From Chromatiaceae bacterium (lineage in GTDB: Bacteria; Pseudomonadota; Gammaproteobacteria; DTRM01): a stretch of 40,586 nucleotides of DNA. This document shows positions 21,384 to 39,495 of the stretch, piece after piece (the stretch's first letter is position 1; each line of letters begins with the position of its first letter). The translations under genes were made by a program, and so were the position numbers. The notes under the pieces are model-generated. The model was not told the origin of the DNA, ran no database searches, and was given only the letters and a program-made list of their open reading frames with translations. Location: the NCBI GenBank assembly GCA_012965975.1, contig DTRM01000027.1:1-40586 (forward strand). The letters are read 5' to 3'.

Positions 21384-21827
21384 ATGAAACTACGTGAACT
21401 CATGGCCAAGCTGCATCGATTGCAAGCTGAGGTTAATTCATCGGAATCTGGCCAAGCCGATATAGTTGCGCAGATAGCGTCGCTGGGAGCTGAAATTCGG
21501 ACACGATTGGATGCCTCGGATGAGGCCTTTTCTGATCTTTCTGAGCAAGAATTTCAGTCCTTGATGGCCGATCTTGGGGATCCAAAGCAGGTGACGGTTG
21601 AAGTGGTCTATGCGACGAAAGTTGAACAGGCCATCCATGAGGTTCAACTCGCGCAGGGTGCCAGTATAGAGGATTGTATTATCATGTCCGGTATTCTGGA
21701 TGGCTGTCCGGACATTGATTTATCAGTCAATAAAGTCGGTATTAACGGCGCAGTAAAACCGCTATCTGAGCGGGTAGCCGATACGGATCGTATCGAGATC
21801 TATCGGCCAGTCACTGCCGAAGTCTAA
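21384..21827 (+). CDS. RnfH/UPF0125 (ubiquitin-like) family protein with a ~60-aa N-terminal extension
   Basis: The C-terminal ~87 aa (VTVEVVYATKVEQAIHEV.L..GASIEDCIIMSGIL...PDIDLSVNKVGINGAVKPLSERVADTDRIEIYRP) matches the RnfH/RatB pattern. The N-terminal 60 aa look coiled-coil-like. No start has a clear SD; internal ATG 21564 would give a canonical-length RnfH. Confidence 0.65.
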   Translation: MKLRELMAKLHRLQAEVNSSESGQADIVAQIASLGAEIRTRLDASDEAFSDLSEQEFQSLMADLGDPKQVTVEVVYATKVEQAIHEVQLAQGASIEDCIIMSGILDGCPDIDLSVNKVGINGAVKPLSERVADTDRIEIYRPVTAEV

Positions 21828-21915
21828 TCTTCCTGTAGTATAAGTCCTACTTAAATTGGATTAAGCAGTTACCTCTTTGTGGGGCGCTCTCATCTAGTGC
21901 GGAATAATTCTTTTT

Positions 21916-21932
21916 CGCACCGAAATGGTGCA
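21916..21932. promoter_or_regulatory. NtrC-like enhancer site (cGCACC-N5-GGTGCA)
   Basis: CGCACCgaaatGGTGCA matches 11 of 12 positions of the enteric NtrC consensus TGCACC-N5-GGTGCA. It lies about 100 bp upstream of the sigma54-like promoter at 22033. Confidence 0.35.
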
Positions 21933-22032
21933 TTGAGGCGTTGGCAACATCACTATTTTTAGAATTATCAGGTCTACGAAAGTCCCTGTTACAAAACAAT
22001 ATTCTTCCTATTTTTTAGTGTTTTTGATGGGT

Positions 22033-22048
22033 TGGCACATTTTGTGCA
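22033..22048 (+). promoter_or_regulatory. candidate sigma54 (-24/-12) promoter of the ABC operon
   Basis: TGGCACattttgTGCA compared with consensus TGGCACG-N4-TTGCW. The GG and GC elements have correct spacing. It lies in an AT-rich 340-nt intergenic region, about 124 nt upstream of ATG 22172. Confidence 0.5.
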
Positions 22049-22171: not shown

Positions 22172-23557
22172 ATGAAAAGTCAATTAGTAGGCGCTATGGC
22201 GCTTGTATTGGGTGTGGCGAATGTTGCCAGCGCCGAAGACATCCGTATCGCTGTTGGCCATCAGAGTAAATGTACGGATACCTATTCCGCGGGCATTATT
22301 TTGAAAGAGTTAGAACTTATTCAAAAGTATTTACCAAGAGATGGAAAGTATAAGGATGTAAGCTACACATTTGATTGGAAGGACTATTCGTCTGGTTCAC
22401 CAATCACCAATCAGATGTTGGCAAACAAATTGGACTTTGGCGTGATGGGTGATTACCCGCTGATCGTCAACGGAGCCAAGTTTCAAGCCACCAAGAGCTT
22501 GGAAACCAAGTATATCGCCGGCACCGGTTATAACCAGAAGGGTTCTGGTAACGCCATTGTTGTGCCAATCAACTCGGACATCCAGACCCTGGCTGAGCTT
22601 AAAGGCAAGTCAATTTCGGTCCCAGTGGGTAGTGCTGCTTGGGGTATGACCCTGAAGGCCTTTCAGGATCTGGGTATCGATACCAAGAAAGACCTGACTC
22701 TGAAGAATCAGAGCCCATCCGTCGGCGCGGCTAATATTGCAGCGAATAAGATTGATGCGCATGGTGACTTCTGTCCTTGGTCTGAGATCATGGAGTTCCG
22801 CGGTACCGGTCGTAAGATCTTCGACGGCAGTGAAGCCGGCGTCCCTTATCTGCACGGTGTTGTGGTTCGTAACGACTACGCAGAAAAGTATCCTGAAGTT
22901 GTCGTCGCTTTCATGAAGGCAGTGGTTGAGGCAGGTAACTGGGTGCGTAACGATCCCGTCCATGCGGCAACGATGTTAGAGGAATGGACGGGTGTAGAGC
23001 GTGAAGTACAGTATCTCTACTTTAGTGAGGGCGGTGCCCTGACGCTGGATCCAACCATCAAGGCGGAATGGGTCGAGGCGTTGGAATTCGATCACACCGT
23101 TCTGGTTAAGGAAAAAACCATTCCACCTTTGGACTTCAAGCGTTGGATCGACGATCAGTACATCCGTACTGCGTATAAGGACCTAGGTTTGGACTACGAT
23201 AAAGATCTGGCCTACACGCGTGTTGCCAAGGCTGAAAACATGAAGCTTAATCCTGCCGAAATTTGGCATAAGGATAAGGGCATCCTGAGCTACGACAGTG
23301 TTTCTGCGATGCTTTCCGATAAAGATTCATTCGGTAAGGCAGGCACCCTGCGTGCATCTTATGTCTATGACAACACCACCGGGTTGAAGATATTTGGGCA
23401 TATTGCGACCTACGTAAAGGGTAGCGATGGTATTGTCACCGCCTTTATGCGTAAAATAGACGCAGAAGCCTTTGCTACAAGCAATGGTGGCTCGCTGATG
23501 GCTGCGGGATCTACCTCCGTAACGGGTGAGCTGATCAAGCAAGCAAGCATGCATTAA
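22172..23557 (+). CDS. periplasmic substrate-binding protein, NMT1/SsuA/TauA-like (NitT/TauT ABC family), with a ~110-aa C-terminal extra domain
   Basis: It has a signal peptide (MKSQLVGAMALVLGVANVASA/ED) and an SsuA/TauA-like core to about residue 345. The additional C-terminal domain spans nt ~23228-23557. An AGAGAGG SD precedes ATG 22172. Confidence 0.85.
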   Translation: MKSQLVGAMALVLGVANVASAEDIRIAVGHQSKCTDTYSAGIILKELELIQKYLPRDGKYKDVSYTFDWKDYSSGSPITNQMLANKLDFGVMGDYPLIVNGAKFQATKSLETKYIAGTGYNQKGSGNAIVVPINSDIQTLAELKGKSISVPVGSAAWGMTLKAFQDLGIDTKKDLTLKNQSPSVGAANIAANKIDAHGDFCPWSEIMEFRGTGRKIFDGSEAGVPYLHGVVVRNDYAEKYPEVVVAFMKAVVEAGNWVRNDPVHAATMLEEWTGVEREVQYLYFSEGGALTLDPTIKAEWVEALEFDHTVLVKEKTIPPLDFKRWIDDQYIRTAYKDLGLDYDKDLAYTRVAKAENMKLNPAEIWHKDKGILSYDSVSAMLSDKDSFGKAGTLRASYVYDNTTGLKIFGHIATYVKGSDGIVTAFMRKIDAEAFATSNGGSLMAAGSTSVTGELIKQASMH

Positions 23558-23573
23558 GTTGAAGTTAAGTAAC

Positions 23574-23668
23574 GCGACCGGCTGAATCTCAGCCGGTCGC
23601 TGCACTTGCAAAAACCCCTTTTTTTACGCCTTGTAGACAAGGCGTAAAAAAAGGGGTTTTTGCAAGTG
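23574..23668. repeat. two tandem intercistronic hairpins (12-bp stem, then a perfect 31-bp inverted repeat)
   Basis: Hairpin 1: gcgaccggctga-atc-tcagccggtcgc (23574-23600). Hairpin 2: cacttgcaaaaacccctttttttacgccttg (23603-23633), loop taga, caaggcgtaaaaaaaggggtttttgcaagtg (23638-23668). They lie between the binding-protein and permease genes. Confidence 0.9.
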
Positions 23669-23731
23669 ATCTAGTTATCGTTGTATTGATTTTCAGAGGA
23701 GCGTAAGTTTCTCACATTTGGGTACAGCACA

Positions 23732-24580
23732 ATGAGTGAAGGCGTAGGCGGATATAATCAACATGACGCACTGAAGCAGCGGCTTCGCGGTCTGATGGTG
23801 CGCATTAAGCGCGTCGAATGGCAGCGCATCTTAGTGAGCGCATCGGCTTTGGTGGGCGCAGTGGTGGTTTGGCAGCTGCTGGCGATGTACCAGTTCAACT
23901 ACATTATTAGTTTTGAAAATATCCCAACGCCGGTGGTGGTGTTTGAGCAATTTCTCAAACTGATCGTCACCGAAGAGTTCTATCTACATATCGGTGCGAG
24001 TTTGCAGCGCATCGGCATCGCTTTTACGTCGGCGTCGATAATGGGCGTCATTGTTGGCATCTTCATGGGTCGTTCACGCATATTTCACGACATCATGATG
24101 CCCTACATCGAAATTTTAAGGCCGATTCCAGCGGTGGCTTGGATTCCGTTGGCGATCCTGATGTTTCCGACCGAGGAATCCAGCATCATTTATATTACTT
24201 ACCTAGGCACCTTTTTCCCGGTCGTTCTGAACACCGTGCATGGCGTCGAACAAACACCGGAAGCGCTGGTCAGAGCGGCTAAATCGCTGGGTGCCGGTAC
24301 TAAATCGATCCTCTGGCATGTGATTTTGCCGGGCGCCTTGCCCAGTATTATGGCGGGTCTCGCGATCGGTATGGGCGTTGCCTGGTTCTCTTTATTGGCC
24401 GGTGAGATCATTAGTGGTCAATACGGTATTGGCTACTTCACCTGGAACTCCTATACTCTGATTGAGTACCCCAACATTATTATCGGCATGCTGACTATCG
24501 GCGGCTTGGGTACCCTCTCTACCTACCTGGTCAGGCAGGCTTCTAAACCGGCGCTACGCTGGCAGGAGCATAAAGAATGA
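23732..24580 (+). CDS. ABC transporter permease (NitT/TauT family, SsuC/TauC-like)
   Basis: 282 aa, multi-TM, with the BPD_transp_1 EAA-type loop (EALVRAAKSLGAGTKSILWHVILPGALPSIMAGLAIGMGVAW). Confidence 0.9.
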   Translation: MSEGVGGYNQHDALKQRLRGLMVRIKRVEWQRILVSASALVGAVVVWQLLAMYQFNYIISFENIPTPVVVFEQFLKLIVTEEFYLHIGASLQRIGIAFTSASIMGVIVGIFMGRSRIFHDIMMPYIEILRPIPAVAWIPLAILMFPTEESSIIYITYLGTFFPVVLNTVHGVEQTPEALVRAAKSLGAGTKSILWHVILPGALPSIMAGLAIGMGVAWFSLLAGEIISGQYGIGYFTWNSYTLIEYPNIIIGMLTIGGLGTLSTYLVRQASKPALRWQEHKE

Positions 24581-25239
24581 TTCGCTATCTATCTATTGCC
24601 GCGACGTCCATCCGTGCCTACAAGGGCACATTCGTACTGGTCAGTCTGGGCTTTTTTGTGCTCTATTACGCGGCACTTCTGTTGGCAACCATGCTGCGTT
24701 TTGGGGAGATCCCGAATTATGTTGTGTTCCACGACATCATTGGTATCTATGCGTTGGTTTTGCAAGGTACGCCGTCGTTGCAAGACGCTATACCGATTAT
24801 GCTGGGGGAGGCTTGGTTGGAAACGGGCTTCAAGGATCCTCTCTACTATGGGGTGGCGACTTGGAGCTATATGCTGATTCCACCAAAGATGTTGCTGGTT
24901 GCCATAATGGGCATGCTGTTAGGTTTGTTTGCAAGTTTGACGCTGTACAAGCGCAAGCAAGCCTGCTTGTTGGATAACGACCGGCGACTATTTGCGATTG
25001 CAGGAATTGGTACCACCTTTATCAGTTTGACTAGCGCGACCCTCACCTGGGTGGTTTGTTGTGCAACGCCTTCTTGGGTGGTCGCCCTGGCGATGCTGGG
25101 TATGAGTGCGTCGCTGGCGTTAGCCCTGGAGCCGTTGGGTCAGGCGCTTACCCTTGCTGGATTTGGCCTGATGGCTTGGATCATCTGCGTGCAGTTAAAA
25201 CGCTTGGTCGTAACCAACGACCTATCATTGGCGACTTAA
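24577..25239 (+). CDS. integral membrane protein of unknown function, embedded in the ABC operon (vicinal Cys-Cys in a TM helix)
   Basis: 220 aa with about 5 predicted hydrophobic segments. Its ATG overlaps the permease stop (ATGA). The motif TWVVCCATPSW has its cysteines encoded at 25057-25062. I recognise no family. Confidence 0.65.
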   Translation: MIRYLSIAATSIRAYKGTFVLVSLGFFVLYYAALLLATMLRFGEIPNYVVFHDIIGIYALVLQGTPSLQDAIPIMLGEAWLETGFKDPLYYGVATWSYMLIPPKMLLVAIMGMLLGLFASLTLYKRKQACLLDNDRRLFAIAGIGTTFISLTSATLTWVVCCATPSWVVALAMLGMSASLALALEPLGQALTLAGFGLMAWIICVQLKRLVVTNDLSLAT

Positions 25240-25282
25240 GTGCAAGCTCTCCGACTCCGCAATTATTCCCATAGGAAATAGC

Positions 25283-26167
25283 ATGACTGTGACCAGTAAC
25301 TCAGGCGGTATCGCCGCGCAAGACGACGGCGAAGTTGAAATACCGCCTATGGGGAAAACCCATACCACGCAGAGAAAGCCGACCGATGGACACGTAGAAA
25401 TTTCAGGTGTTACCGTGGATTTTGGTCAGGGTGTCGTCGCGGTTAAGGATGCAACCTTGGATATCCAACCCGGTGAATTCGTGTGTCTGCTGGGTCCCTC
25501 CGGTTGCGGAAAATCCACCCTGATGAATACCGTGGCGGCATTTGTAAAGCCGACCACCGGCAGTGTCAAGGTCGATGGAAAAGAGGTTGAAAAACCGGGC
25601 CAGGATCGTGGCATGGTGTTTCAGCAACACTCGCTATTTCCGTGGAAGACGGTCTGTGACAATGTCGCCTTTGGGCCGCTCATGGCCGGTAAGACTAAAT
25701 CACAGGCGCGCAGTATTGCGAGCACCTTTCTTGAGATGGTCGGCCTAAGTGCTTACGAAAATCGTTTTCCCAGTGTGTTGTCTGGCGGGATGAAACAACG
25801 GGTGGGTATTGCCAGAGCATTGGCCAATTATCCGAGTGTGTTATTGATGGATGAGCCTTTTGGTGCGCTGGATGCGCAGACTCGGGCGATGATGCAGGAA
25901 AACTTGCTGCAGATCTGGAGTGAATTTGGCATCACCGTCATCTTCGTCACCCATGATATCGATGAGGCCGTGTTCCTGGCCGATCGTGTTGTCGTGATGA
26001 GTGCCAGCCCCGGTCGTCTGATCGCCGACATCAAAGTGGAGCTGCCACGGCCACGTATTGCGGATATGGTCACCAGCGCCGAATACATCAAGACCAAAAA
26101 ACAATGCATGGATCTGATCCGCCAAGAATCTTTGCGCGCCTTTGAGCAGCAAAGTAATAAAGGCTGA
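25283..26167 (+). CDS. ABC transporter ATP-binding protein (NitT/TauT family, SsuB/TauB-like)
   Basis: Walker A GPSGCGKST, signature LSGGMKQRVGIARAL, Walker B LLMDEPFGALD, and H-loop VTHD. Confidence 0.92.
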   Translation: MTVTSNSGGIAAQDDGEVEIPPMGKTHTTQRKPTDGHVEISGVTVDFGQGVVAVKDATLDIQPGEFVCLLGPSGCGKSTLMNTVAAFVKPTTGSVKVDGKEVEKPGQDRGMVFQQHSLFPWKTVCDNVAFGPLMAGKTKSQARSIASTFLEMVGLSAYENRFPSVLSGGMKQRVGIARALANYPSVLLMDEPFGALDAQTRAMMQENLLQIWSEFGITVIFVTHDIDEAVFLADRVVVMSASPGRLIADIKVELPRPRIADMVTSAEYIKTKKQCMDLIRQESLRAFEQQSNKG

Positions 26168-26201
26168 TTGGGCTAACGAATAGGCATACCCGGCTAGATC
26201 A

Positions 26202-26864
26202 ATGATGAAGCTTGGTACCACTCTCGGACTCGCCGCAATCGTGATCGTTGGGGCCATTGTTGCCAATTTTACGCTTAGGCACGATTCAACTCTTCCCGAG
26301 CAGCTATACGACGTTGCCGTTTTCCCCCCGCAGTCGTTAGAGGCCGTTGATCTTATCGATCAGAATAACGAGGTCGTTGGGATAGAACGCTTCAAGAACA
26401 ACTGGACCTTCCTGTTTGTTGGATTTACTCATTGCGCTCATATTTGTGTGCCGAGTCTTTCGCAGATGGTGTTATTAAAAAAGGCGATCCTCAACCAGCC
26501 AGAGTTTGGGCCTCGGTATCAGGAAAAAGGCTTGGCCTTTGTGTTTGTCAGTGTCGACCCAGCACGGGATACGCCCGAGCATCTGGCGCGCTACATGGGG
26601 AGTTTCGATCCGGGTTTTATCGGCATGACGGGTGAAGAGTCGGCGGTCGAAGACTTTGAGAAACGGCTTAAGGCATTTCACCGCGTGCGCGAAGATAAAA
26701 CCAAACCACAGGGTTACGATATTGATCACAGCGGGGAGATCTTCCTGATTGATCCGGCGGGCAGGCTGGCCGCCAAGTTCCATCCGCCTCTGGATATCAA
26801 CAAGGTGGTGAATCAATTCCAGCTGTTTGTTGGCCACTTCACTGCACCGGTGCCACCAGGTTGA
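26202..26864 (+). CDS. SCO1/SenC-family thioredoxin-fold copper chaperone / thiol-disulfide protein
   Basis: It has an N-terminal membrane anchor, a CxxxC motif (FTHCAHICVPS), and the conserved distal His (DHSGEIFLIDPAGRL). Confidence 0.85.
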   Translation: MMKLGTTLGLAAIVIVGAIVANFTLRHDSTLPEQLYDVAVFPPQSLEAVDLIDQNNEVVGIERFKNNWTFLFVGFTHCAHICVPSLSQMVLLKKAILNQPEFGPRYQEKGLAFVFVSVDPARDTPEHLARYMGSFDPGFIGMTGEESAVEDFEKRLKAFHRVREDKTKPQGYDIDHSGEIFLIDPAGRLAAKFHPPLDINKVVNQFQLFVGHFTAPVPPG

Positions 26865-27526
26865 TCAAAGCAGTCGTCTTGTTGTGGGTTAGAGGCTGGC
26901 TGCTATGCTTGGTCGCTGGCTATGCCAGCCCCGCAGCGGCCGATTATCTGAATGAAGCAGATCAGGCGCCCCATGAGAAATGTGGCTACTGCCACGAACT
27001 CGATGGCAATCCGCGCATGACCCGATATCCACGTCTTGCAGGACAGCAGCGTGACTATATGGTTAAGCAACTTAAGGACTTTCGGTCGGGTCGTCGAACG
27101 GGAGAAATGCAAGGAACAGCGGAATTATTGTCGGACCGTGACATCGACATCGTGTCGGAGTATTTTAGTCAGCAAGCGGTGAAGCTGCCGCAATTGGATA
27201 GCCAGCCGGGCGCCGATCAGCGCTTGGCGAAATCGCTTTATCAGTACGGTGATTCGACAAGGGGATTGCTTGCCTGCAGTGCCTGTCATGGGGCCGTAGG
27301 CTTGGGTGGGGCCGCGATACCACGTTTGGCTGGCCAGCATGAGGCCTACCTATTACAACAGCTGGGCGAATTTAAGGCGGGGCAGCGCAGCAACGATGTG
27401 GAGGCTCAGATGGGCGATATTAGCCGCCTGCTAAGCGATACAGAAATCGCCGTGCTGTCAGCCTACCTGTCTCGCCTTAAGCCCAATAAAAACAATAGTT
27501 TGAAGGTTCTGGATGAGCGTAATTAG
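26861..27526 (+). CDS. dihaem cytochrome c4-type protein
   Basis: It has a signal peptide and two CxxCH motifs (CGYCH, CSACH), each followed by a candidate Met ligand. TTG 26861 overlaps the SCO1 stop. Confidence 0.85.
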   Translation: MIKAVVLLWVRGWLLCLVAGYASPAAADYLNEADQAPHEKCGYCHELDGNPRMTRYPRLAGQQRDYMVKQLKDFRSGRRTGEMQGTAELLSDRDIDIVSEYFSQQAVKLPQLDSQPGADQRLAKSLYQYGDSTRGLLACSACHGAVGLGGAAIPRLAGQHEAYLLQQLGEFKAGQRSNDVEAQMGDISRLLSDTEIAVLSAYLSRLKPNKNNSLKVLDERN

Positions 27527-27529
27527 TCC

Positions 27530-27587
27530 TTGACATCAAACGGTTTTAGGCTAAAATTAAACTTATTATATCATGTTATAACAAGTT
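27530..27587 (+). promoter_or_regulatory. candidate sigma70 promoter with an overlapping 28-bp palindromic operator
   Basis: TTGACA (27530-35), 16-nt spacer, TAAAAT (27552-57). An imperfect palindrome AACTTaTTATAtCATGtTATAAcAAGTT spans 27560-27587 (24 of 28 symmetric) and contains the perfect GntR-type GT-N4-AC core GTTATAAC. It lies directly upstream of the GntR gene. Confidence 0.45.
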
Positions 27588-27605: not shown

Positions 27606-28373
27606 ATGACAACATCGAAGCACCCAATGAAGACAGTCCGTAATGCCTCTGCTGAGCCCATGTATGCGCAGATTAAAGAAGTGCTTAAACAGCGCATTTT
27701 GGATGGCGACTACGAAGTGAACGAACGCTTGCCCTCGGAAAGCGAGATGATGAAGGTGTTCGGTGTGAGTCGTATTACCGTTCGCCAAGCGGTGCGTGAC
27801 CTGCATACGGAGGGGCTGGTATTTAGCGCGCAGGGCAAAGGGACTTTCGTGTCCAGGCCAAAGGCGGTGCAGGACATTCAGCACTTGCAGGGGTTTGGCG
27901 AGGCGATGGCACCGCAAGGTTACGATACCTCGACTCGAGTGGTCGGGATCCAGGAAGTACGCGCCCCACAAGAGGTGGCAGAGGCCTTGAAGATTACGCA
28001 AAACGCCACGGTGGTTGAGTTGACGCGTATTCGGTATTTGAACCGGGAACCGATTTCTGTTGATAACAGTTTTTTCCCGATGAACATTGGTCAGTCGCTA
28101 CAGACTCGTGATTTGACCCAGGATATCTTTCCGATGTTGGAAACGGAATTTGGAGTTGGACTCGGGCATGCAGATTTAAAGATCGAAGCTATCGTCGCCA
28201 CAGCAGAGACGGCGAAACACCTGAACGTTGATAAGGATTCTGCTGTGCTTCGAATTCAACGACTGGTTTTTTCACAAGCAGGCGACCCGATTGATTTTGA
28301 GTATCTGTCCTATCGCGGCGATGCCTTCCAATATCAATTGCGGGTAGGGCGTCAGGAGCCACAGGCAGAATAA
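27606..28373 (+). CDS. GntR-family transcriptional regulator, HutC subfamily (wHTH plus UTRA effector domain)
   Basis: LPSESEMMKVFGVSRITVRQAVRDLHTEGLV is a GntR wHTH. The C-terminal ~150 aa are UTRA-like. Confidence 0.9.
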   Translation: MTTSKHPMKTVRNASAEPMYAQIKEVLKQRILDGDYEVNERLPSESEMMKVFGVSRITVRQAVRDLHTEGLVFSAQGKGTFVSRPKAVQDIQHLQGFGEAMAPQGYDTSTRVVGIQEVRAPQEVAEALKITQNATVVELTRIRYLNREPISVDNSFFPMNIGQSLQTRDLTQDIFPMLETEFGVGLGHADLKIEAIVATAETAKHLNVDKDSAVLRIQRLVFSQAGDPIDFEYLSYRGDAFQYQLRVGRQEPQAE

Positions 28374-28406
28374 TTTATTTAGGACAACTGAGTTAGGAAT
28401 ATCACT

Positions 28407-30167
28407 ATGAACGATAAAACAGATAGCAGTCATGAAGTATTAGAATTTGACGTGCTGGTTATTGGCGGCGGTACTGCGGGCCCAATGGCGGGTGTTCGCG
28501 CTAAAGAGATGAACCCAAAGCTGAGAGTGGCGGTTTTAGAGAAAGCCAACGTGAAACGTAGCGGCTGCATCAGTATGGGCATGGATGGCTTGAACAACGC
28601 CGTTATTCCGGGGCACGCGACGCCCGAACAGTATGTCAAAGAAATCACCGTTGCCAACGATGGAATTGTTAATCAAAAGACCATCATGGCCTATGCGACG
28701 CGTAGCTACGACATGATTAACACCTTGGATAAATGGGGTGTCAAGTTCGAGAAGGATGAGACCGGCGATTACAACGTCAAAAAAGTCCACCACATGGGGG
28801 CCTATGTGTTGCCAATGCCAGAAGGGCATCACATGAAAAAGATCCTTTACCGGCAGCTGCGCAAGAAACGCGTTTCGGTGATCAATCGTTTCATGGCAAC
28901 CCGTTTGTTTAAAGGTAAGGATGGTGCGATCGCCGGTGCGCATGTGGTCAACCCACGCACCGCCGAGACGGCAGTGATTAAGGCTAAAACCGTTATTCTG
29001 TGTACCGGTGCAGCGGGTCGTTTGGGGATGCCAACGTCCGGTTACCTGTTTGGTACCTACGAAAATCCAACCAATGCCGGTGATGGCTATAGCATGGCCT
29101 ATCACGTTGGCGCGGAACTCAGCGGCCTCGAGTGTTACCAGATCAACCCATTGATCAAGGATTACAACGGCCCTGCGTGTGCCTATGTGACGGGTCCTAT
29201 GGGCGGTTACACGGCCAACTCTAAGGGTGATCGCTTCATCGAGTGCGATTACTGGAGCGGCCAAATGATGCTGGAATTCTATAAGGAACTGGAAGGCGGT
29301 AACGGTCCGGTGTTCTTGAAGATCGACCACCTTGCAGAAGAAACCATTTCAGAGATCGAAGTCATTTTGCATTCCAATGAACGCCCCAGTCGGGGCCGCT
29401 TCCACGAAAATCGTGGTACCAATTATCGGGAGCGCATGGTTGAAATGCATATCTCAGAGATTGGGTTTTGCAGTGGCCACAGCGCCTCTGGTATTTGGAC
29501 GGATGAAAATGCGCGCACCACTATTCCGGGACTCTATGCGGCGGGTGATTGTGGCTCCGTGCCACACAACTACATGCTGGGTGCTTTTGTTTATGGTGCG
29601 ATCGCGGCCGAGGATGCGGTCAAATACTGTGCCGAACACGAGCAGTGTGAGATAGACAGTGCCGAGATTGCGGCTGAAAAGGCCCGTGTATTGGCGCCGT
29701 TACAGGTGAAAGATGGCATTCCGGCCGAGCAGATGGAATACAAAATTCGGCGCTTGGTCAACGACTACTTGCAACCACCCAAGGTGACTAAAAAGATGGA
29801 GATCGGCATGGAGCGCTTCGCTGAAATTCGCGCCGACTTGCCTATGTTGCAAGCGAATGATCCGCATGAATTGATGCGTGCGATGGAAGTGCACTTCATT
29901 CTTGATTGCGCCGAGATGGCGGCGACCGCGTCGATGTATCGTACCGAGAGTCGTTGGGGCTTGTATCACTACTACGTCGATCACCCCGATACCGATGATG
30001 AAAAATGGATGTGCCATGTGCAGACCAAGAAAGGTGCAGATGGTCTCCCGGAATGTAGCACGCGCCCTATTGAACCTTACATCGTAGAGTTGGATGAAGA
30101 GGAAATGAGCGCCTATAAGAAATTACGTGTCAGCGATGACGACACCACAGAAACAGCAGGAGTTTGA
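28407..30167 (+). CDS. FAD-dependent oxidoreductase resembling adenylylsulfate reductase alpha subunit (AprA-like; SdhA/FrdA superfamily)
   Basis: 586 aa with an FAD fold (DVLVIGGGTAGPMAG, LEKANVKRSG), AprA-like segments (ERPSRGRFHENRG, ISEIGFCSGHSASGIW), and a C-terminal FAD motif (IPGLYAAGDCG). Confidence 0.8.
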   Translation: MNDKTDSSHEVLEFDVLVIGGGTAGPMAGVRAKEMNPKLRVAVLEKANVKRSGCISMGMDGLNNAVIPGHATPEQYVKEITVANDGIVNQKTIMAYATRSYDMINTLDKWGVKFEKDETGDYNVKKVHHMGAYVLPMPEGHHMKKILYRQLRKKRVSVINRFMATRLFKGKDGAIAGAHVVNPRTAETAVIKAKTVILCTGAAGRLGMPTSGYLFGTYENPTNAGDGYSMAYHVGAELSGLECYQINPLIKDYNGPACAYVTGPMGGYTANSKGDRFIECDYWSGQMMLEFYKELEGGNGPVFLKIDHLAEETISEIEVILHSNERPSRGRFHENRGTNYRERMVEMHISEIGFCSGHSASGIWTDENARTTIPGLYAAGDCGSVPHNYMLGAFVYGAIAAEDAVKYCAEHEQCEIDSAEIAAEKARVLAPLQVKDGIPAEQMEYKIRRLVNDYLQPPKVTKKMEIGMERFAEIRADLPMLQANDPHELMRAMEVHFILDCAEMAATASMYRTESRWGLYHYYVDHPDTDDEKWMCHVQTKKGADGLPECSTRPIEPYIVELDEEEMSAYKKLRVSDDDTTETAGV

Positions 30168-30168
30168 C

Positions 30169-30402
30169 ATGCCATTAATTCAAAGTAGCAGCCGCGCGCC
30201 GGTTACCATTAATTCCGAGGCTTGCATCGCCGACAAGGGTTGTACCGTTTGTGTTGATGTCTGCCCGTTAGACCTGTTGGTCATTGATATGGCCAATGGT
30301 ACTGCGGTCATGAAGTACGACGAATGCTGGTACTGTCTACCGTGCGAATTGGACTGTCCCACCGATGCAGTCAGCGTCGAAATTCCCTACCTATTGAAAT
30401 AA
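30169..30402 (+). CDS. small 2x[4Fe-4S] ferredoxin resembling the N-terminal ferredoxin domain of AprB (lacks the AprB C-terminal tail)
   Basis: 77 aa with CIADKGCTVCVDVCPLDLLVID...ECWYCLPCELDCPTDAV (compare AprB ...ICPNDLM..D...CWECYSCVK.CPQGAI). An AGGAG SD precedes ATG 30169, which lies 1 nt after the flavoprotein stop. Confidence 0.8.
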   Translation: MPLIQSSSRAPVTINSEACIADKGCTVCVDVCPLDLLVIDMANGTAVMKYDECWYCLPCELDCPTDAVSVEIPYLLK

Positions 30403-30415
30403 GCAGGAGTATTCC

Positions 30416-31378
30416 ATGGCGATTAGTTTTGATGAAGGCTTAGACCTGGATGAGGTTTTGGAAAACCTCAGTGATGCCGATGCTGGCGTGCGCAGAGTCG
30501 CAGTGATGGAGCTTCGCGAGTTGGATGAGGACGATGCCATTCCACTGGCAGTCAAGGCCTTGTCCGACAGCGATGCCAATGTGCGCAAAGAGGCGGCGCA
30601 GGTGATGGATGAGTTTGAAGGTGCCGAGACCATTCAGGCGTTGGTGGGTGCATTGGCCGATAGCGATGAGGGTGTGCGTACCACGGCCGCTGCAGTGCTG
30701 GCCGAGACCCAGGATCCGACCGCGGGGCCAATTTTGATGCAGGGAGTGGGCAGCACCAATATCTTCGTCAAGGCTGCTAGCCTGCATGGCTTGCGGGGGT
30801 TGCGACTGGCTGAATCCGAACCCCTTGCGTTGGAGAATTTAGAGCACGCCGAACCGACGGTGCGGCGCGAGTCCGTTGGGGTACTGGCCTATCTTAAGAG
30901 TGTGTCGATACTGCCGGTCTTGATGAACACGGCGGCCAACGACAGCGATGAAAACGTCCGACGCGCGGCGATCGGCTCACTGGTTTATTGTCCGGATGAT
31001 CAAGTCACCGAAACGCTGACTAAGGGTTTGAGTGATGACAATTGGCTGGTGCGTGAAGAGTCCGCTTTTGTGCTGGGTAAGATTGCACCGACCTCGGCGG
31101 TCAACGCACTCATCGATGCCATGAGTGATGAGTATTGGCAGGTTCGGGTGAAGACGGCAGCCGCGTTGGGCAAGCTCAAAGATCCGGCTGCGGTCGATGT
31201 GCTGGGTCAGGCATTGTCATACAACATCAGCAACCTACGCAAAGAATCTGCGGCGGCGCTTGGCGAGATCAAGTCACCCAACGCATTACCGTTCCTGCAG
31301 GTTGCTACTGAAGATGTGGATCCCGATGTGCGTAAGATCGCGCAATGGGCCATTGACCAGATTAATAAAGGAGACTAG
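30416..31378 (+). CDS. HEAT-repeat (PBS-lyase HEAT-like) protein
   Basis: 320 aa made of about 9-10 tandem ~30-aa repeats of the type D.D..VR..AA.ALG......A...L...L.D. Confidence 0.85.
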   Translation: MAISFDEGLDLDEVLENLSDADAGVRRVAVMELRELDEDDAIPLAVKALSDSDANVRKEAAQVMDEFEGAETIQALVGALADSDEGVRTTAAAVLAETQDPTAGPILMQGVGSTNIFVKAASLHGLRGLRLAESEPLALENLEHAEPTVRRESVGVLAYLKSVSILPVLMNTAANDSDENVRRAAIGSLVYCPDDQVTETLTKGLSDDNWLVREESAFVLGKIAPTSAVNALIDAMSDEYWQVRVKTAAALGKLKDPAAVDVLGQALSYNISNLRKESAAALGEIKSPNALPFLQVATEDVDPDVRKIAQWAIDQINKGD

Positions 31379-31380
31379 CT

Positions 31381-31707
31381 GTGGCGTTTATCGTTGGTGA
31401 TGGCTGCATACGTTGTAAATACACCGATTGTGTTGATGTCTGTCCGGTGGAAGATTGTTTCCGGGTAGGTCCAAACTTTCTGGTGATCGATCCGGTCACC
31501 TGTATCGATTGCACGCTCTGTGTGCCGGAGTGTCCTGCCGAGGCTATCTTTGCAGAGAAGGATGTGCCGGAGGATCAGCAGGAATTCATTGCATTGAATG
31601 CGGAGCTGGCCAAGGTATGGCCCGGTATCAATGACCCGATTGACCCCTTGGAAGATGCCGATGACTGGGTCGACGAAAAAGCTAAGCTCCAGTATCTGGA
31701 ACGTTAG
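31381..31707 (+). CDS. fdxA: 7Fe ferredoxin, Azotobacter FdI type ([3Fe-4S][4Fe-4S])
   Basis: 108 aa with a GTG start. AFIVGDGCIRCKYTDCVDVCPVEDCF..GPNFLVIDP..CIDCTLCVPECPAEAIFAE.DVPEDQQEFIALNAELAKVWP is near-collinear with Azotobacter/Pseudomonas FdxA. Confidence 0.9.
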   Translation: MAFIVGDGCIRCKYTDCVDVCPVEDCFRVGPNFLVIDPVTCIDCTLCVPECPAEAIFAEKDVPEDQQEFIALNAELAKVWPGINDPIDPLEDADDWVDEKAKLQYLER

Positions 31708-37674: not shown

Positions 37675-38053
37675 GAATCAGATCCTTCTCCACAGCTGGG
37701 CGAGCACGAGGTTTCAGCCCGGATTCGGTTACCAGATCAACCACATTTCCTAAAAGCTACTCGAGAAAACGATTCGGTTTTATGTCAGCATCGAAAGTAG
37801 CTGGGCCATCGAACTCGACAAGGACATCGACGTCGCTATCGTTGCATGCATCGTCACGCGCGGTCGAACCGAACAGCCCTAGATGTCTGACGGAATAGTT
37901 ATTGATGATTTCATCCTGATGTGATGTCAGGATTTCCAGATCCTGTTCTCGAAGCGCAGTGGGGAATGGGGGAGGTCGTTGTATGTTTCGGGCGGCTGGG
38001 CAGAAATCGCATTGATCGGGGCTGGTTGGTCTGATCGTATTTACAAAAGCCAT
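37664..38053 (-). pseudogene. MNT (MntA-type nucleotidyltransferase) antitoxin-like gene interrupted by an in-frame TAG
   Basis: The sequence reads ...HLGLFGSTARDDACNDSDVDVLVEFDGPATFDADIKPNRFLE*LLGNVVDLVTESGLKPRARPAVEKDLIRVT*. The TAG at 37757-37759 sits where family members continue (LE.LLG..VDLVT). The terminal TGA (37664-66) overlaps the HepT GTG start, giving typical toxin-antitoxin coupling. Confidence 0.6.
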
Positions 38054-39495
38054 TGAACGATGGCGTAACGGCTGCGGCCATTGCTCGGTGTGATCGAGTG
38101 ATAGGCGGGATCGCGCACGAAGTCGGTCACCACTAATCGATTGTATTCCGGTGTGATCTGATCAAGCAAAAATAGTTCCGCCGGCTTAACGCCCCCCTGT
38201 TTGACCAGATGGGTCGTCAATGTGCGGTGTTCGTTGAGAAAGTCCAGACGTTCATCTTTGTAGTCTTTCCAGCGAAACTCGACCGCATCAGCGGAAAGAG
38301 GTTCTGTGCGCGCCACCTCTGCCCAGAGTTGCAGGATTGCCCCATCGCTTTCCTTCCAGTCTTTGTTTAAGTAGGTTAACGCAGCAAGGACTACAGATTT
38401 ACGATTGGTTCGATCGGTGTGAATCCAGAACCCCTTGCTGTCGGGATCGTGCGCACGCAGTTTGACGCTGGTTTCACCATTTCCGACGACCAATTTAGTA
38501 TCCGTATACTCAGCTAGCAAGCGGTGCCATGAAGGATGGTAAAACAGTTCGCCCCCCAGAGATCCGCGCCGAGCCGGGGCCCATTTTGAGTCATAAGGGA
38601 GCCCCTTGTCATCCGGGGAAAATTCTAAATGACAATGTTGCTCAATATACTCATCAAGAATCGCTTCGTTAAAGAAGTTATCCAGACATGCGTATTTGGC
38701 AAAGGGTTTTGCCTGACTTGATGCTTTTATCTCCTGAATAGTATCGGGTTCTAGGTAATAGGGGGTCACCCATTTCTTTAAGATGGGGTCTTGGTCGTAT
38801 CGCTCCGCCGCTTTTACCGGTGATATCGCCGCACTGATAGAGTGGGAATGGTTCAGCTGTGGATCAATCGAATCGATGGCAGTTTGGATGGCGTTATCTG
38901 ATGGCCATGGTCGGTCTTCAAAGATGGAAGGTCGTTGACCAAATACAAAGGCAATAATGGACTCCACCTGTGTCTTAGGGTCATCCGTCAGTTCATCAAA
39001 ATCGATCTTCAGAAGATCCGGAGAATGGGTGTCAATGAACTCATCGATTTGACGCAAAAGCCATTCAAAATGCGTTCGGGTTTTGTTCTCATCGCTGCCG
39101 GGCCATTTGCGTTTAAAGCTCCGCAGGCATGCCGATGGAGCTCGCACGCACTGGATGACCTTGTAATGGTAACCTTCTAGTGCGGGCGCAAAATCGAGTA
39201 TCGCTTCAAGGGTTTCAGGCTCCTTTATCCCCCATAGCGGGTAGTGGATAAACCGATTGATTATGAACCGTTCGATGTGAGTCAGGACAGAACGATCATT
39301 GCGATACTGATACAGCAGTCGGCGAAATTGTGCGTCCTCAAAGTGTCCTTTCGGATTCGCCTCAGTCGCGGGCACAAGTTTCTCGCCCATCATGACACCT
39401 AGGTGGTGAAGGATTCCGGCGACGGCGCTGGAACCACTACCGTAGGTTCCTAGCACAATTATTCCCAGAGAGTTTGAAGCATCAACGTGTGACAT
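38041..39495 (-). CDS. two-domain protein: N-terminal sulfotransferase-like domain fused to a C-terminal 2OG-Fe(II) oxygenase domain
   Basis: 484 aa. The N-terminus has a PAPS-loop-like GTYGSGSSAVAGILHHLGV...NPKGHFED. The C-terminus has WIHTDRTNRKSV (HxD), LTYLNKDWKESDGAILQLW, and NRLVV...AYHSITPSNGRSRYAIVQW (distal His and Arg), typical of the 2OG-FeII_Oxy_3-like fold. Confidence 0.6.
   Translation of the reverse strand: MSHVDASNSLGIIVLGTYGSGSSAVAGILHHLGVMMGEKLVPATEANPKGHFEDAQFRRLLYQYRNDRSVLTHIERFIINRFIHYPLWGIKEPETLEAILDFAPALEGYHYKVIQCVRAPSACLRSFKRKWPGSDENKTRTHFEWLLRQIDEFIDTHSPDLLKIDFDELTDDPKTQVESIIAFVFGQRPSIFEDRPWPSDNAIQTAIDSIDPQLNHSHSISAAISPVKAAERYDQDPILKKWVTPYYLEPDTIQEIKASSQAKPFAKYACLDNFFNEAILDEYIEQHCHLEFSPDDKGLPYDSKWAPARRGSLGGELFYHPSWHRLLAEYTDTKLVVGNGETSVKLRAHDPDSKGFWIHTDRTNRKSVVLAALTYLNKDWKESDGAILQLWAEVARTEPLSADAVEFRWKDYKDERLDFLNEHRTLTTHLVKQGGVKPAELFLLDQITPEYNRLVVTDFVRDPAYHSITPSNGRSRYAIVQWLL

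Follow-up and report, generated by a model that had tools for sequence, protein, structure and literature searches.

A mobile, conserved six-gene transporter unit is found in a Chromatiaceae bacterium, on a stretch of 40,586 nt (contig DTRM01000027.1, assembly GCA_012965975.1) that was analysed as a whole and is called the window below. The unit joins an ATP-binding cassette (ABC) importer of the NitT/TauT family to three further genes, which encode an accessory membrane protein, a SCO1/SenC protein and a dihaem (c4-type) cytochrome c. The unit is real, and it is more structured than it had appeared in a first-pass annotation made from the sequence alone.

Type I ABC importers are thought to need a substrate-binding protein (SBP), a permease and an ATPase only. 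Here, a fourth membrane component from an undescribed family and a copper/thiol chaperone have been recruited, and the set has been retained as a unit through several transfers. The first-pass annotation had suggested that a metal- or thiol-handling function might be coupled to transport, and the comparison of loci leaves this as the best reading. In the model favoured here, the importer core would deliver the substrate of a neighbouring ferredoxin-dependent AprAB-like reductase, and one sub-lineage would have acquired a thiol-based add-on that serves the SBP and acts only at the periplasmic and membrane side of uptake. Taken as a whole, this model is tentative, and we rate its chances as somewhat below even.

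Conservation and movement of the six-gene unit

The six open reading frames are co-directional and closely spaced on the forward strand, where the first pass had placed them. The SBP gene (22166/22172-23557) matches the Pfam families NMT1_2 and NMT1, and its start codon is likely the ATG at 22172. It is followed by genes for a TauC/SsuC/NtrB-like permease (23732-24580; BPD_transp_1, E 4e-25), for the accessory membrane protein (24577-25239), which belongs to no Pfam family, and for a TauB/NtrCD/SaoA-like ATPase (25283-26167; ABC_tran, E 4e-34). The genes for SCO1/SenC (26202-26864; PF02630, 113 bits against a cut-off of 22.8) and for the cytochrome (26861-27526; Pfam Cytochrom_C and Cytochrome_CBB3, with two CxxCH motifs) complete the unit. 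The permease and membrane-protein genes share an ATGA overlap and the SCO1 and cytochrome genes a TTGA overlap; the remaining intergenic gaps downstream of the permease gene are 34-43 nt. This order and both overlapping starts had been read correctly in the first pass. The same is true of the two hairpins between the SBP and permease genes, both of which are perfect, and of the CxxxC and His of SCO1 and the two haem motifs of the cytochrome, which Pfam and motif searches bear out.

Membership of the NitT/TauT family is given by a class II NMT1/NMT1_2 SBP together with BPD_transp_1 and ABC_tran components, all above their Pfam gathering scores. The importer does not score as an orthologue of TauABC or SsuABC with the NCBIfam models (TauA 77 against a cut-off of 304 bits, SsuA_fam 121 against 163.5, TauC 151 against 342, TauB 260 against 357). 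Every NCBIfam equivalog score of the permease lies under its cut-off, and the ATPase likewise stays below the equivalog cut-offs.

Loci for comparison were taken from assembly contexts, from 16 named loci of metagenome-assembled genomes (MAGs) and from 80 metagenome loci retrieved via the AprA-like protein, and were mapped with the window's proteins. Individual loci are cited below by number (L001 and so on). The six-gene order, usually including the cytochrome, occurs in about 30 loci from gamma- and betaproteobacterial MAGs and is therefore not specific to this strain; the loci are independent, and the arrangement is far beyond chance. Hosts include Sulfuriflexus, Thioalkalispiraceae, Thiohalomonadales, Chromatiales, Ectothiorhodospiraceae, Granulosicoccaceae and Burkholderiales/Betaproteobacteria MAGs. 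Compared with the window's copies, the transporter proteins are 65-81% identical, whereas SCO1 reaches only 35-47%, the cytochrome 40-54% and the membrane protein 37-70%.

Next to the unit lies a partner module (27606..31707, forward strand) whose members were assigned with Pfam and NCBIfam: a GntR/UTRA regulator, an AprA-like flavoprotein, an AprB-like ferredoxin, a HEAT-repeat protein and FdxA. In the window, FdxA is followed by RnfABCDGE-RseC. The module, with or without FdxA, adjoins this importer family in every sufficiently long locus, more than 60 in all, in at least three gene orders. In gammaproteobacterial loci the transporter precedes GntR-AprA-Fd-HEAT-FdxA-Rnf (Fd, ferredoxin). In betaproteobacterial loci GntR-AprA-Fd-HEAT-FdxA comes first, then the transporter, and a flavo-iron-sulfur (flavo-FeS) oxidoreductase of about 1,170 amino acids (aa) replaces Rnf. 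In soil-type loci (Duganella, Collimonas, Rugamonas) the order is GntR-AprA-Fd-SBP-permease-ATPase-HEAT-DUF971, with the ABC genes between ferredoxin and HEAT. Because the adjacency persists despite the permuted order, it is almost certain that the importer feeds the AprAB-like enzyme, a tie that the first pass had proposed for the downstream cluster; guilt by association is strong here. The nearest solved relative of the AprA-like protein is the alpha subunit of 3'-phosphoadenosine-5'-phosphosulfate (PAPS) reductase (8a8o, E 1e-64), and its scores lie below both AprA equivalog models (303 against 557 bits, 170 against 642). A literature search on the AprA-like/HEAT/Rnf set found nothing relevant.

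Other genes accompany the module in related loci. The flavo-FeS oxidoreductase (about 1,170-1,190 aa, RP005_N/Pyr_redox_2) stands after the cluster in non-Rnf loci (L015 10244-13705, L024 17085-20552, L061 7744-11247; also L046, L050, L062, L075 and L083) and probably serves as an alternative module for reducing ferredoxin. Where Rnf is missing (33 loci, for instance L105 16052-16333), the core cluster regularly includes a small GBBH-like_N (DUF971) protein. An exporter of the TauE/SafE type (sulfite/sulfonate) flanks the cluster in about 16 gammaproteobacterial loci, both with and without the add-on, though not in the window (examples are L001 6011-6748, L022 18533-19267 and L023 18915-19649). 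Its presence hints at sulfite or a sulfonate as a product.

The extra genes are optional. A plain three-gene importer with the same cluster is found in the cultured Sedimenticola thiotaurini, Thioalkalivibrio sulfidiphilus and Halothiobacillus, in Thiobacillus and soil Oxalobacteraceae, and in about 40 metagenome loci. Rather than a general component of the system, the passengers are a lineage-specific add-on that most clusters lack, including those of cultured relatives. The cytochrome is a dispensable member even of the add-on, and it is missing from at least six add-on loci (L009, L012, L017, L020, L030 and L039).

Evidence for movement as a block comes from two trees. To place the add-on on the AprA-like tree, five or more gains or losses have to be assumed, on branches that are well supported. 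On the SBP tree all add-on SBPs fall on one side of a single branch, and the add-on is restricted to this one clade, whose members carry Cys36 and Cys203. Taken together, the trees indicate a single origin of the six-gene unit, followed by its exchange as a block among AprA-like clusters. Its internal order is kept even where the two modules have swapped places (L014, L015, L108).

SCO1 and c4 cytochromes are normally oxidase-related. They could therefore be hitch-hikers, ordinary genes for oxidase assembly and electron transfer that are co-located and co-transcribed with the importer and have no role in transport. RNA depth over these two genes falls short of that over the transporter genes, and they evolve faster (35-54% identity, against 65-81% for the transporter), as hitch-hikers might. 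Nevertheless, SCO1 follows the ATPase in every locus that covers the position, about 27 loci from two proteobacterial classes. Where the unit has come into a different AprA-like background or gene order, SCO1 and the cytochrome have stayed with it, and they are always accompanied by the membrane protein. No oxidase genes (cox/cco) were found in the 40-kb window, the rest of which is housekeeping, or in the flanks of related loci that were examined. The passengers are tied to the transporter rather than to oxidase genes, as the first pass had supposed, and hitch-hiking is very improbable.

Cysteines of the binding protein, SCO1 and the membrane protein

The SBP consists of a TauA/SsuA-like core and a NosL-like C-terminal domain. 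Its AlphaFold model has a predicted local distance difference test (pLDDT) score of 90, and TauA and SsuA are its best Foldseek matches (E about 1e-20). The folds of NrtA and CmpA match as well; they match worse than TauA and SsuA, and binding of nitrate or bicarbonate in the manner of NrtA/CmpA was rejected on this ground.

In TauA (PMC6906117), the sulfonate is bound by Gln30 and Ser60-Gly61, and the amino group by two acidic residues, Glu106 and Asp205. These published contacts were transferred to the SBP by aligning it to TauA (phmmer, 6ssy). The sulfonate-binding residues have invariant counterparts in Gln33 (TauA Gln30) and Ser76-Gly77 (TauA Ser60-Gly61), and by this alignment the SBP appears to keep the oxyanion (sulfonate-type) site of TauA/SsuA. 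The amine-binding residues of TauA are not kept: at the positions of Glu106 and Asp205 the SBP has Ile131 and His230. The latter is an invariant histidine at the specificity residue.

Two cysteines lie near this pocket. Cys36 is in domain I, three residues past the glutamine and beside the position of TauA Ser32. Cys203 is in domain II, beside the position of TauA Trp176. These alignment positions imply that the two cysteines approach the cleft from opposite domains. Both are present in 23 of 23 add-on SBPs. Among 40 SBPs whose core-only loci are complete, Cys36 does not occur; these SBPs carry either Thr36 and Val203 (34 of 40) or Val36 and Cys203 (6 of 40). Core-only soil-type SBPs (e.g. L066, L082, L099) carry another cysteine on the side of the cleft, at position 39 in the motif INCATGG. 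Cysteines close to the pocket are thus a recurrent feature of the whole SBP family.

The C-terminal part of about 110 residues is NosL-like. NosL structures are the top three PDB matches to the profile of the domain (best E 0.006), and Pfam NosL (PF05573) is matched by 15 of 18 family members (best E 7e-5), with 14 bits for the window's copy against a cut-off of 24. The alignment spans only about 45 residues and omits the Met-containing insert or loop of NosL. The tail is found in core-only and add-on SBPs alike.

No add-on-specific residues were found in the AprA-like protein, ferredoxin, HEAT protein, FdxA, GntR or the ATPase. Because no cytoplasmic residue tracks the add-on, the add-on concerns a periplasmic or membrane step and not cytoplasmic chemistry. 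A change in the SBP pocket without a change in the cytoplasmic proteins could also point to pre-processing of the substrate. The substrate would then occur in these habitats in a form that is bound to a metal or is a thio or disulfide compound; a thiosulfonate (thiotaurine, say) and a complex of a thiol with a sulfonate are examples. SCO1 and the cytochrome would convert it before or during binding, and the cytoplasmic enzymes would get the same compound as in core-only systems. The TauE-type sulfite/sulfonate exporter adjacent to many gammaproteobacterial loci and the vent origin of the organism would suit this explanation. However, SCO1 would be the only enzyme available for such chemistry, and we know of no Sco protein that acts on small molecules. 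Pre-processing is considered improbable.

SCO1 is a genuine member of its family by PF02630, and the CxxxC motif and the histidine of the Sco loop are present in 30 of 30 copies. The motif reads CPD[VI]C in 28 copies and CADAC in one. In the window it is CAHIC (26433-26447, SCO1 residues 78-82), which is atypical in having a histidine inside the CxxxC. The protein begins with a hydrophobic anchor (residues 1-27). Sco proteins are known to reduce, or to load with copper, the Cys pair of a periplasmic metal site, and in Thermus, Sco reduces the cysteines of CoxB (PMC6696091). This is the chemistry that a Cys-Cys-His cleft would need. The cytochrome has a hydrophobic N-terminal segment, and its two CxxCH motifs and conserved Met positions are present in 24 of 24 full-length copies. 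It belongs to the dihaem c4 group and falls short of the NCBIfam PdsA model (54 against 330 bits).

The accessory membrane protein is a rare new family. Its 263 homologues are all annotated as hypothetical, and 1.84 billion proteins include 140 representative clusters of the family. No Pfam model covers it, and no PDB fold matched its model (pLDDT 80) at E below 1. The first pass had described a protein with five transmembrane (TM) helices. A membrane protein it is, but five clean helices are not seen: hydropathy and the AlphaFold model suggest four TM helices and, in addition, a Cys-Cys segment that is modelled poorly. The protein has a periplasmic domain (about 60 aa) with the invariant motifs RFxEIPNY, GTPS, ExWxExG, YYGxATWS and LIPPKM. 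Three cysteines are invariant as well, two of them in the segment TWVVCCATPSW and the third, Cys130, in a basic loop that is predicted to face the cytoplasm.

The sole database similarity of this protein is to mercury transporters, at the Cys-Cys helix, where 15 of 27 members match MerF weakly and 12 of 27 match MerTP. The MerF score is 16 bits against an NCBIfam cut-off of 50. An hhalign comparison with MerT, using a MerT sequence validated against annotated merT genes, aligns CC-x2-P, LG-S, LEP and the following basic patch with E 0.054. Given these sub-threshold scores and a context with no mer genes, membership of MerT/MerF was rejected, and the likeness is kept as a resemblance.

In more distant members the vicinal Cys-Cys is retained, and so is a cytoplasmic cysteine, located in the loop or the tail. 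They stand at the end of other ABC-importer gene sets and precede a cytoplasmic enzyme, which is a CN-hydrolase (L107, L109, L110) or an aldehyde:ferredoxin oxidoreductase (L113). For instance, relatives at L109 8001-9721 and L113 10001-12692 lie between HAAT-type ABC importers and these two kinds of enzyme, and at L109 a sigma54 two-component pair follows. Proteins of this family may thus accompany ABC importers in general. An apparent fusion of permease and membrane protein (P0393/P0365/P0425) was dismissed as an artefact of a frameshift-rich assembly, the genes being split in L108. No plasmid relatives of the membrane protein were found.

The resemblance to Mer proteins raises the alternative of copper import. 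SCO1 would capture copper in the periplasm, the cytochrome would reduce it to Cu(I), and SCO1 would deliver the metal to the intramembrane Cys-Cys of the membrane protein, from where it would reach the cytoplasmic cysteine, the link to the SBP being secondary. Such a relay would supply copper in sulfidic, copper-poor habitats. The layout is similar to that of MerP/MerT (periplasmic Cys-pair chaperone, intramembrane Cys-Cys, cytoplasmic Cys), the copper ligands of SCO1 are invariant, and the organism comes from hydrothermal vents. One distant relative of the membrane protein also adjoins NosL. This adjacency occurs in one place only, an 81%-identical relative is located in a different operon, and the case, being anecdotal, was not used as support. 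Further points tell against copper import. The cluster has no copper enzyme or copper regulator, its regulation is sigma54/NtrC-like and not copper-responsive, the similarity to Mer is below significance, and the add-on is never found apart from this importer within its own clade. Copper import is unlikely.

Reductive maintenance without a metal is a further alternative. The membrane protein would be a CcdA/DsbD-like conduit that supplies SCO1 with reducing equivalents from the cytoplasm. SCO1 would be a thiol-disulfide reductase and nothing else, and would protect the SBP cysteines, or a substrate prone to form disulfides, from oxidation in the periplasm. The thioredoxin fold of SCO1 and the reduction of CoxB cysteines by the Thermus Sco (PMC6696091) agree with this. 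The Cys pair spans both domains of the SBP, so that a disulfide would lock the protein shut, and cysteines of the membrane protein are found on either side of the membrane. However, a vicinal Cys-Cys is poor at thiol-disulfide exchange, and known conduits use two separated cysteines. Searches of Pfam, NCBIfam and the PDB gave no similarity to CcdA/DsbD in sequence or fold, and with vicinal cysteines as well a conduit of that type was rejected. All 30 copies of SCO1 conserve the histidine of the Sco loop, for which only metal binding has a need, and a c-type cytochrome, as a one-electron donor, is an odd partner for disulfide reduction. By falling likelihood, the rivals are reductive maintenance, copper import, substrate pre-processing and hitch-hiking. 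Even the first of these is rather unlikely.

The favoured model combines a dedicated importer with a thiol add-on at its periplasmic face. The SBP would have gained a second cysteine, so that Cys36 and Cys203 face the ligand cleft beside the invariant His230. SCO1, with its thioredoxin fold, would most likely service this pair, either by keeping it reduced or by loading and unloading Cu(I), and the c4 cytochrome would be a dispensable electron donor to SCO1. The membrane protein, translationally coupled to the permease, would belong to the transporter as an accessory subunit. A MerT-like thiolate path across the membrane would be formed by its Cys-Cys within the membrane and its cysteine on the cytoplasmic side. 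The comparison of loci and the RNA data establish which genes make up the unit, that the unit is conserved, has moved as a block and is expressed in situ, that the add-on is optional and that the cysteines co-vary with it. The role of the SBP as client of SCO1, a contact between membrane protein and permease, the direction in which metal or electrons would flow and the identity of the substrate are points that we infer.

A more specific form of the favoured model is also conceivable. SCO1 would have a client other than respiratory and N2O enzymes, in that it would build or maintain a Cys2-His site in the SBP, the importer would recognise a thiophilic form of its ligand, and the MerT-like subunit would pass a soft atom or metal alongside the permease. 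An example of such a ligand is a thiosulfonate or a thiosulfate-type anion bound via Cu(I). CmpA, which uses a Ca2+ co-ligand, offers an analogy for a Cu(I)-bound ligand in an SBP. In this specific form the proposal has only a small chance of being right.

Several observations weigh against the favoured model. Its support is comparative throughout. At L061 the SBP has Cys36 and Cys203, yet the permease is directly followed by the ATPase and there is no membrane-protein gene; the Cys pair therefore does not strictly require the add-on. A prediction that an SBP with Cys36 and Cys203 always comes with the add-on fails at this locus, within the reach of that contig. Since the add-on SBPs are monophyletic, the co-variation of Cys36 with the add-on counts as about one event and not as 23. 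Distant relatives of the membrane protein are also found without any SCO1, and its similarity to MerT/MerF is without statistical significance. No copper-dependent enzyme is encoded nearby. Finally, the ATPase has about four times the RNA depth of SCO1 and the cytochrome, which would fit a looser link too.

If SCO1 does serve the SBP, the role of the Sco family extends past oxidase assembly, and the system would show how functional free thiols are kept up in the periplasm of sulfur-oxidising bacteria. The importer, for its part, is pinned as the supply line of a very widespread AprAB-like ferredoxin-dependent enzyme. Natural comparisons of systems with and without the add-on, including cultured core-only strains, open both problems to experiment.

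Promoter elements, hairpins and expression

The gene upstream of the transporter in the window encodes an RnfH-family protein (21384..21827, forward strand; Ub-RnfH, E 7e-23). It is a conserved 5' neighbour in gammaproteobacterial loci (L001, L003, L005, L007, L009, L012, L013, L020-L022 and others). Between it and the SBP gene lies a sigma54-type -24/-12 element, TGGCACATTTTGTGCA (22033..22048, forward strand), which is a match at the level of the consensus only. A pattern of this kind, TGGCA[CT]-N5-nTGC[A/G/T], precedes the SBP gene in 12 of the 12 gammaproteobacterial loci of the first set, and the element also occurs in further add-on and core-only loci.

A candidate enhancer, the NtrC-type palindrome CGCACC-N5-GGTGCA (21916..21932, forward strand), agrees with the consensus at 11 of 12 positions. 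Its half-sites are conserved about 85-115 bp 5' of the sigma54 element, and the window has the full site. In an alignment anchored at the sigma54 element, the half-sites GTGCA and (T/C)GCAC(C/T) are seen in relatives at about -146 and -116. The activator is suggested by these sites to be of the NtrC type. Upstream sites of the NifA type are essentially absent from these loci.

The GntR operon has control elements of its own. Upstream of it are a promoter-like TTGACA-16-TAAAAT, which matched at 11 of 12 positions in a promoter scan, and a conserved palindromic operator (together 27530..27585, forward strand). The operator, ATATCATGTTATAACAAG (27568-27585, forward strand), lies between the promoter-like -10 and the GntR start. 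A tandem palindrome of the ATAACATGTTATAACA type stands at the equivalent position upstream of GntR in more than 20 loci, with and without the add-on, and is likely an operator of the GntR/HutC type. A related ACTTGTATTA box is found 5' of the transporter's enhancer region in most loci. With its own promoter-like site and operator, the GntR operon is a second unit, controlled separately from the transporter and not part of a single transcript with it.

The SBP stop codon is followed in the window by a 12-bp GC-rich hairpin (23574..23600, forward strand), whose position is kept among relatives; a stable hairpin stands 3' of this stop in all gammaproteobacterial loci. It is probably an mRNA stabiliser or an attenuator. 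The second hairpin is a perfect inverted repeat of 31 bp, with A/T runs flanking CCCC/GGGG (23603..23668, forward strand). It is seen in the window only, no counterpart having been found in related loci, and may be a mobile or strain-specific element. Over the 130 nt after the SBP stop, the minimum free energy is -78 kcal/mol.

The locus is present in many hydrothermal-vent metagenomes, and all six genes are transcribed in a vent metatranscriptome, where they are found on assembled RNA contigs. Contig depth, a crude measure of expression, is about 44 for the SBP and about 20 for the permease, membrane protein and ATPase, which share a single contig; it thus falls from 44 before the conserved hairpin to 20 after it. 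Depth is about 3-8 for SCO1 and the cytochrome and about 2-6 for GntR and the AprA-like protein. The RNA contig over the SBP gene begins about 170 nt 5' of the predicted sigma54 element (window 21863-22033). The true transcription start may lie further upstream, or there may be read-through from rnfH.

Elsewhere in the window, a 484-aa protein encoded on the reverse strand (38041-39495) has a weak match to 2-oxoglutarate-Fe(II) oxygenases in its C-terminal part.

Comparison with known systems

The closest known importers are TauABC and SsuABC of E. coli. They have the same three-part architecture, their SBPs (TauA 6ssy/6st0, SsuA 2x26/3e4r) have the nearest fold, and the sulfonate-binding Gln and Ser-Gly are kept. 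Their equivalog models are missed by a wide margin, however. The SBP described here is about 140 aa longer, with a NosL-like tail, has Ile and His in place of Glu106 and Asp205, and carries a Cys pair at the cleft. Three extra genes are present, and the partner is an AprAB-like ferredoxin-dependent flavoenzyme instead of TauD or SsuD.

The SCO1 protein can be compared with Sco-dependent CuA maturation (Thermus Sco1/PCuAC; B. subtilis and S. lividans Sco; Bradyrhizobium TlpA-ScoI). A membrane-anchored Sco with CxxxC and His is common to both, and the proposed target is again a periplasmic Cys pair beside a His. The client proposed here, by inference, is a transporter SBP and not CoxB, and genes for an oxidase, PCuAC or TlpA are not nearby.

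MerP-MerT/MerF systems share with the unit a periplasmic Cys-pair protein, an intramembrane vicinal Cys-Cys followed by Pro, a LEP-type turn and one or more cytoplasmic cysteines. In contrast to MerT and MerF, the membrane protein has double the length, with a further conserved domain in the periplasm, and is encoded inside an ABC importer. MerA, MerR and MerP are absent, and the similarity is sub-threshold.

Another example is the SAO (selenocysteine-assisted organometallic) system, a NitT/TauT-type importer whose SBP has Cys-Cys or Cys-Sec in its pocket and for which a thiophilic cargo was proposed (bioRxiv 10.1101/2022.07.06.499078). It likewise has a thioredoxin-like protein and proteins with Cys-Cys motifs. 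Membership was rejected on scores far below those of its models (SaoX 30 against 300 bits, SaoP 139 against 295, SaoA 260 against 360) and because the cluster has no MerB-like gene. The unit differs from SAO in lacking selenocysteine, the MerB-like lyase and the efflux pump, and in its host group and partner enzyme.

Finally, the partner module resembles AprAB and the AprAB-like PAPS reductase of Methanothermococcus thermolithotrophicus (8a8o), with which it shares a flavoprotein and a small two-cluster ferredoxin subunit. To these it adds a HEAT protein, FdxA, a ferredoxin-reducing module (Rnf or the large flavo-FeS oxidoreductase) and an importer of its own.

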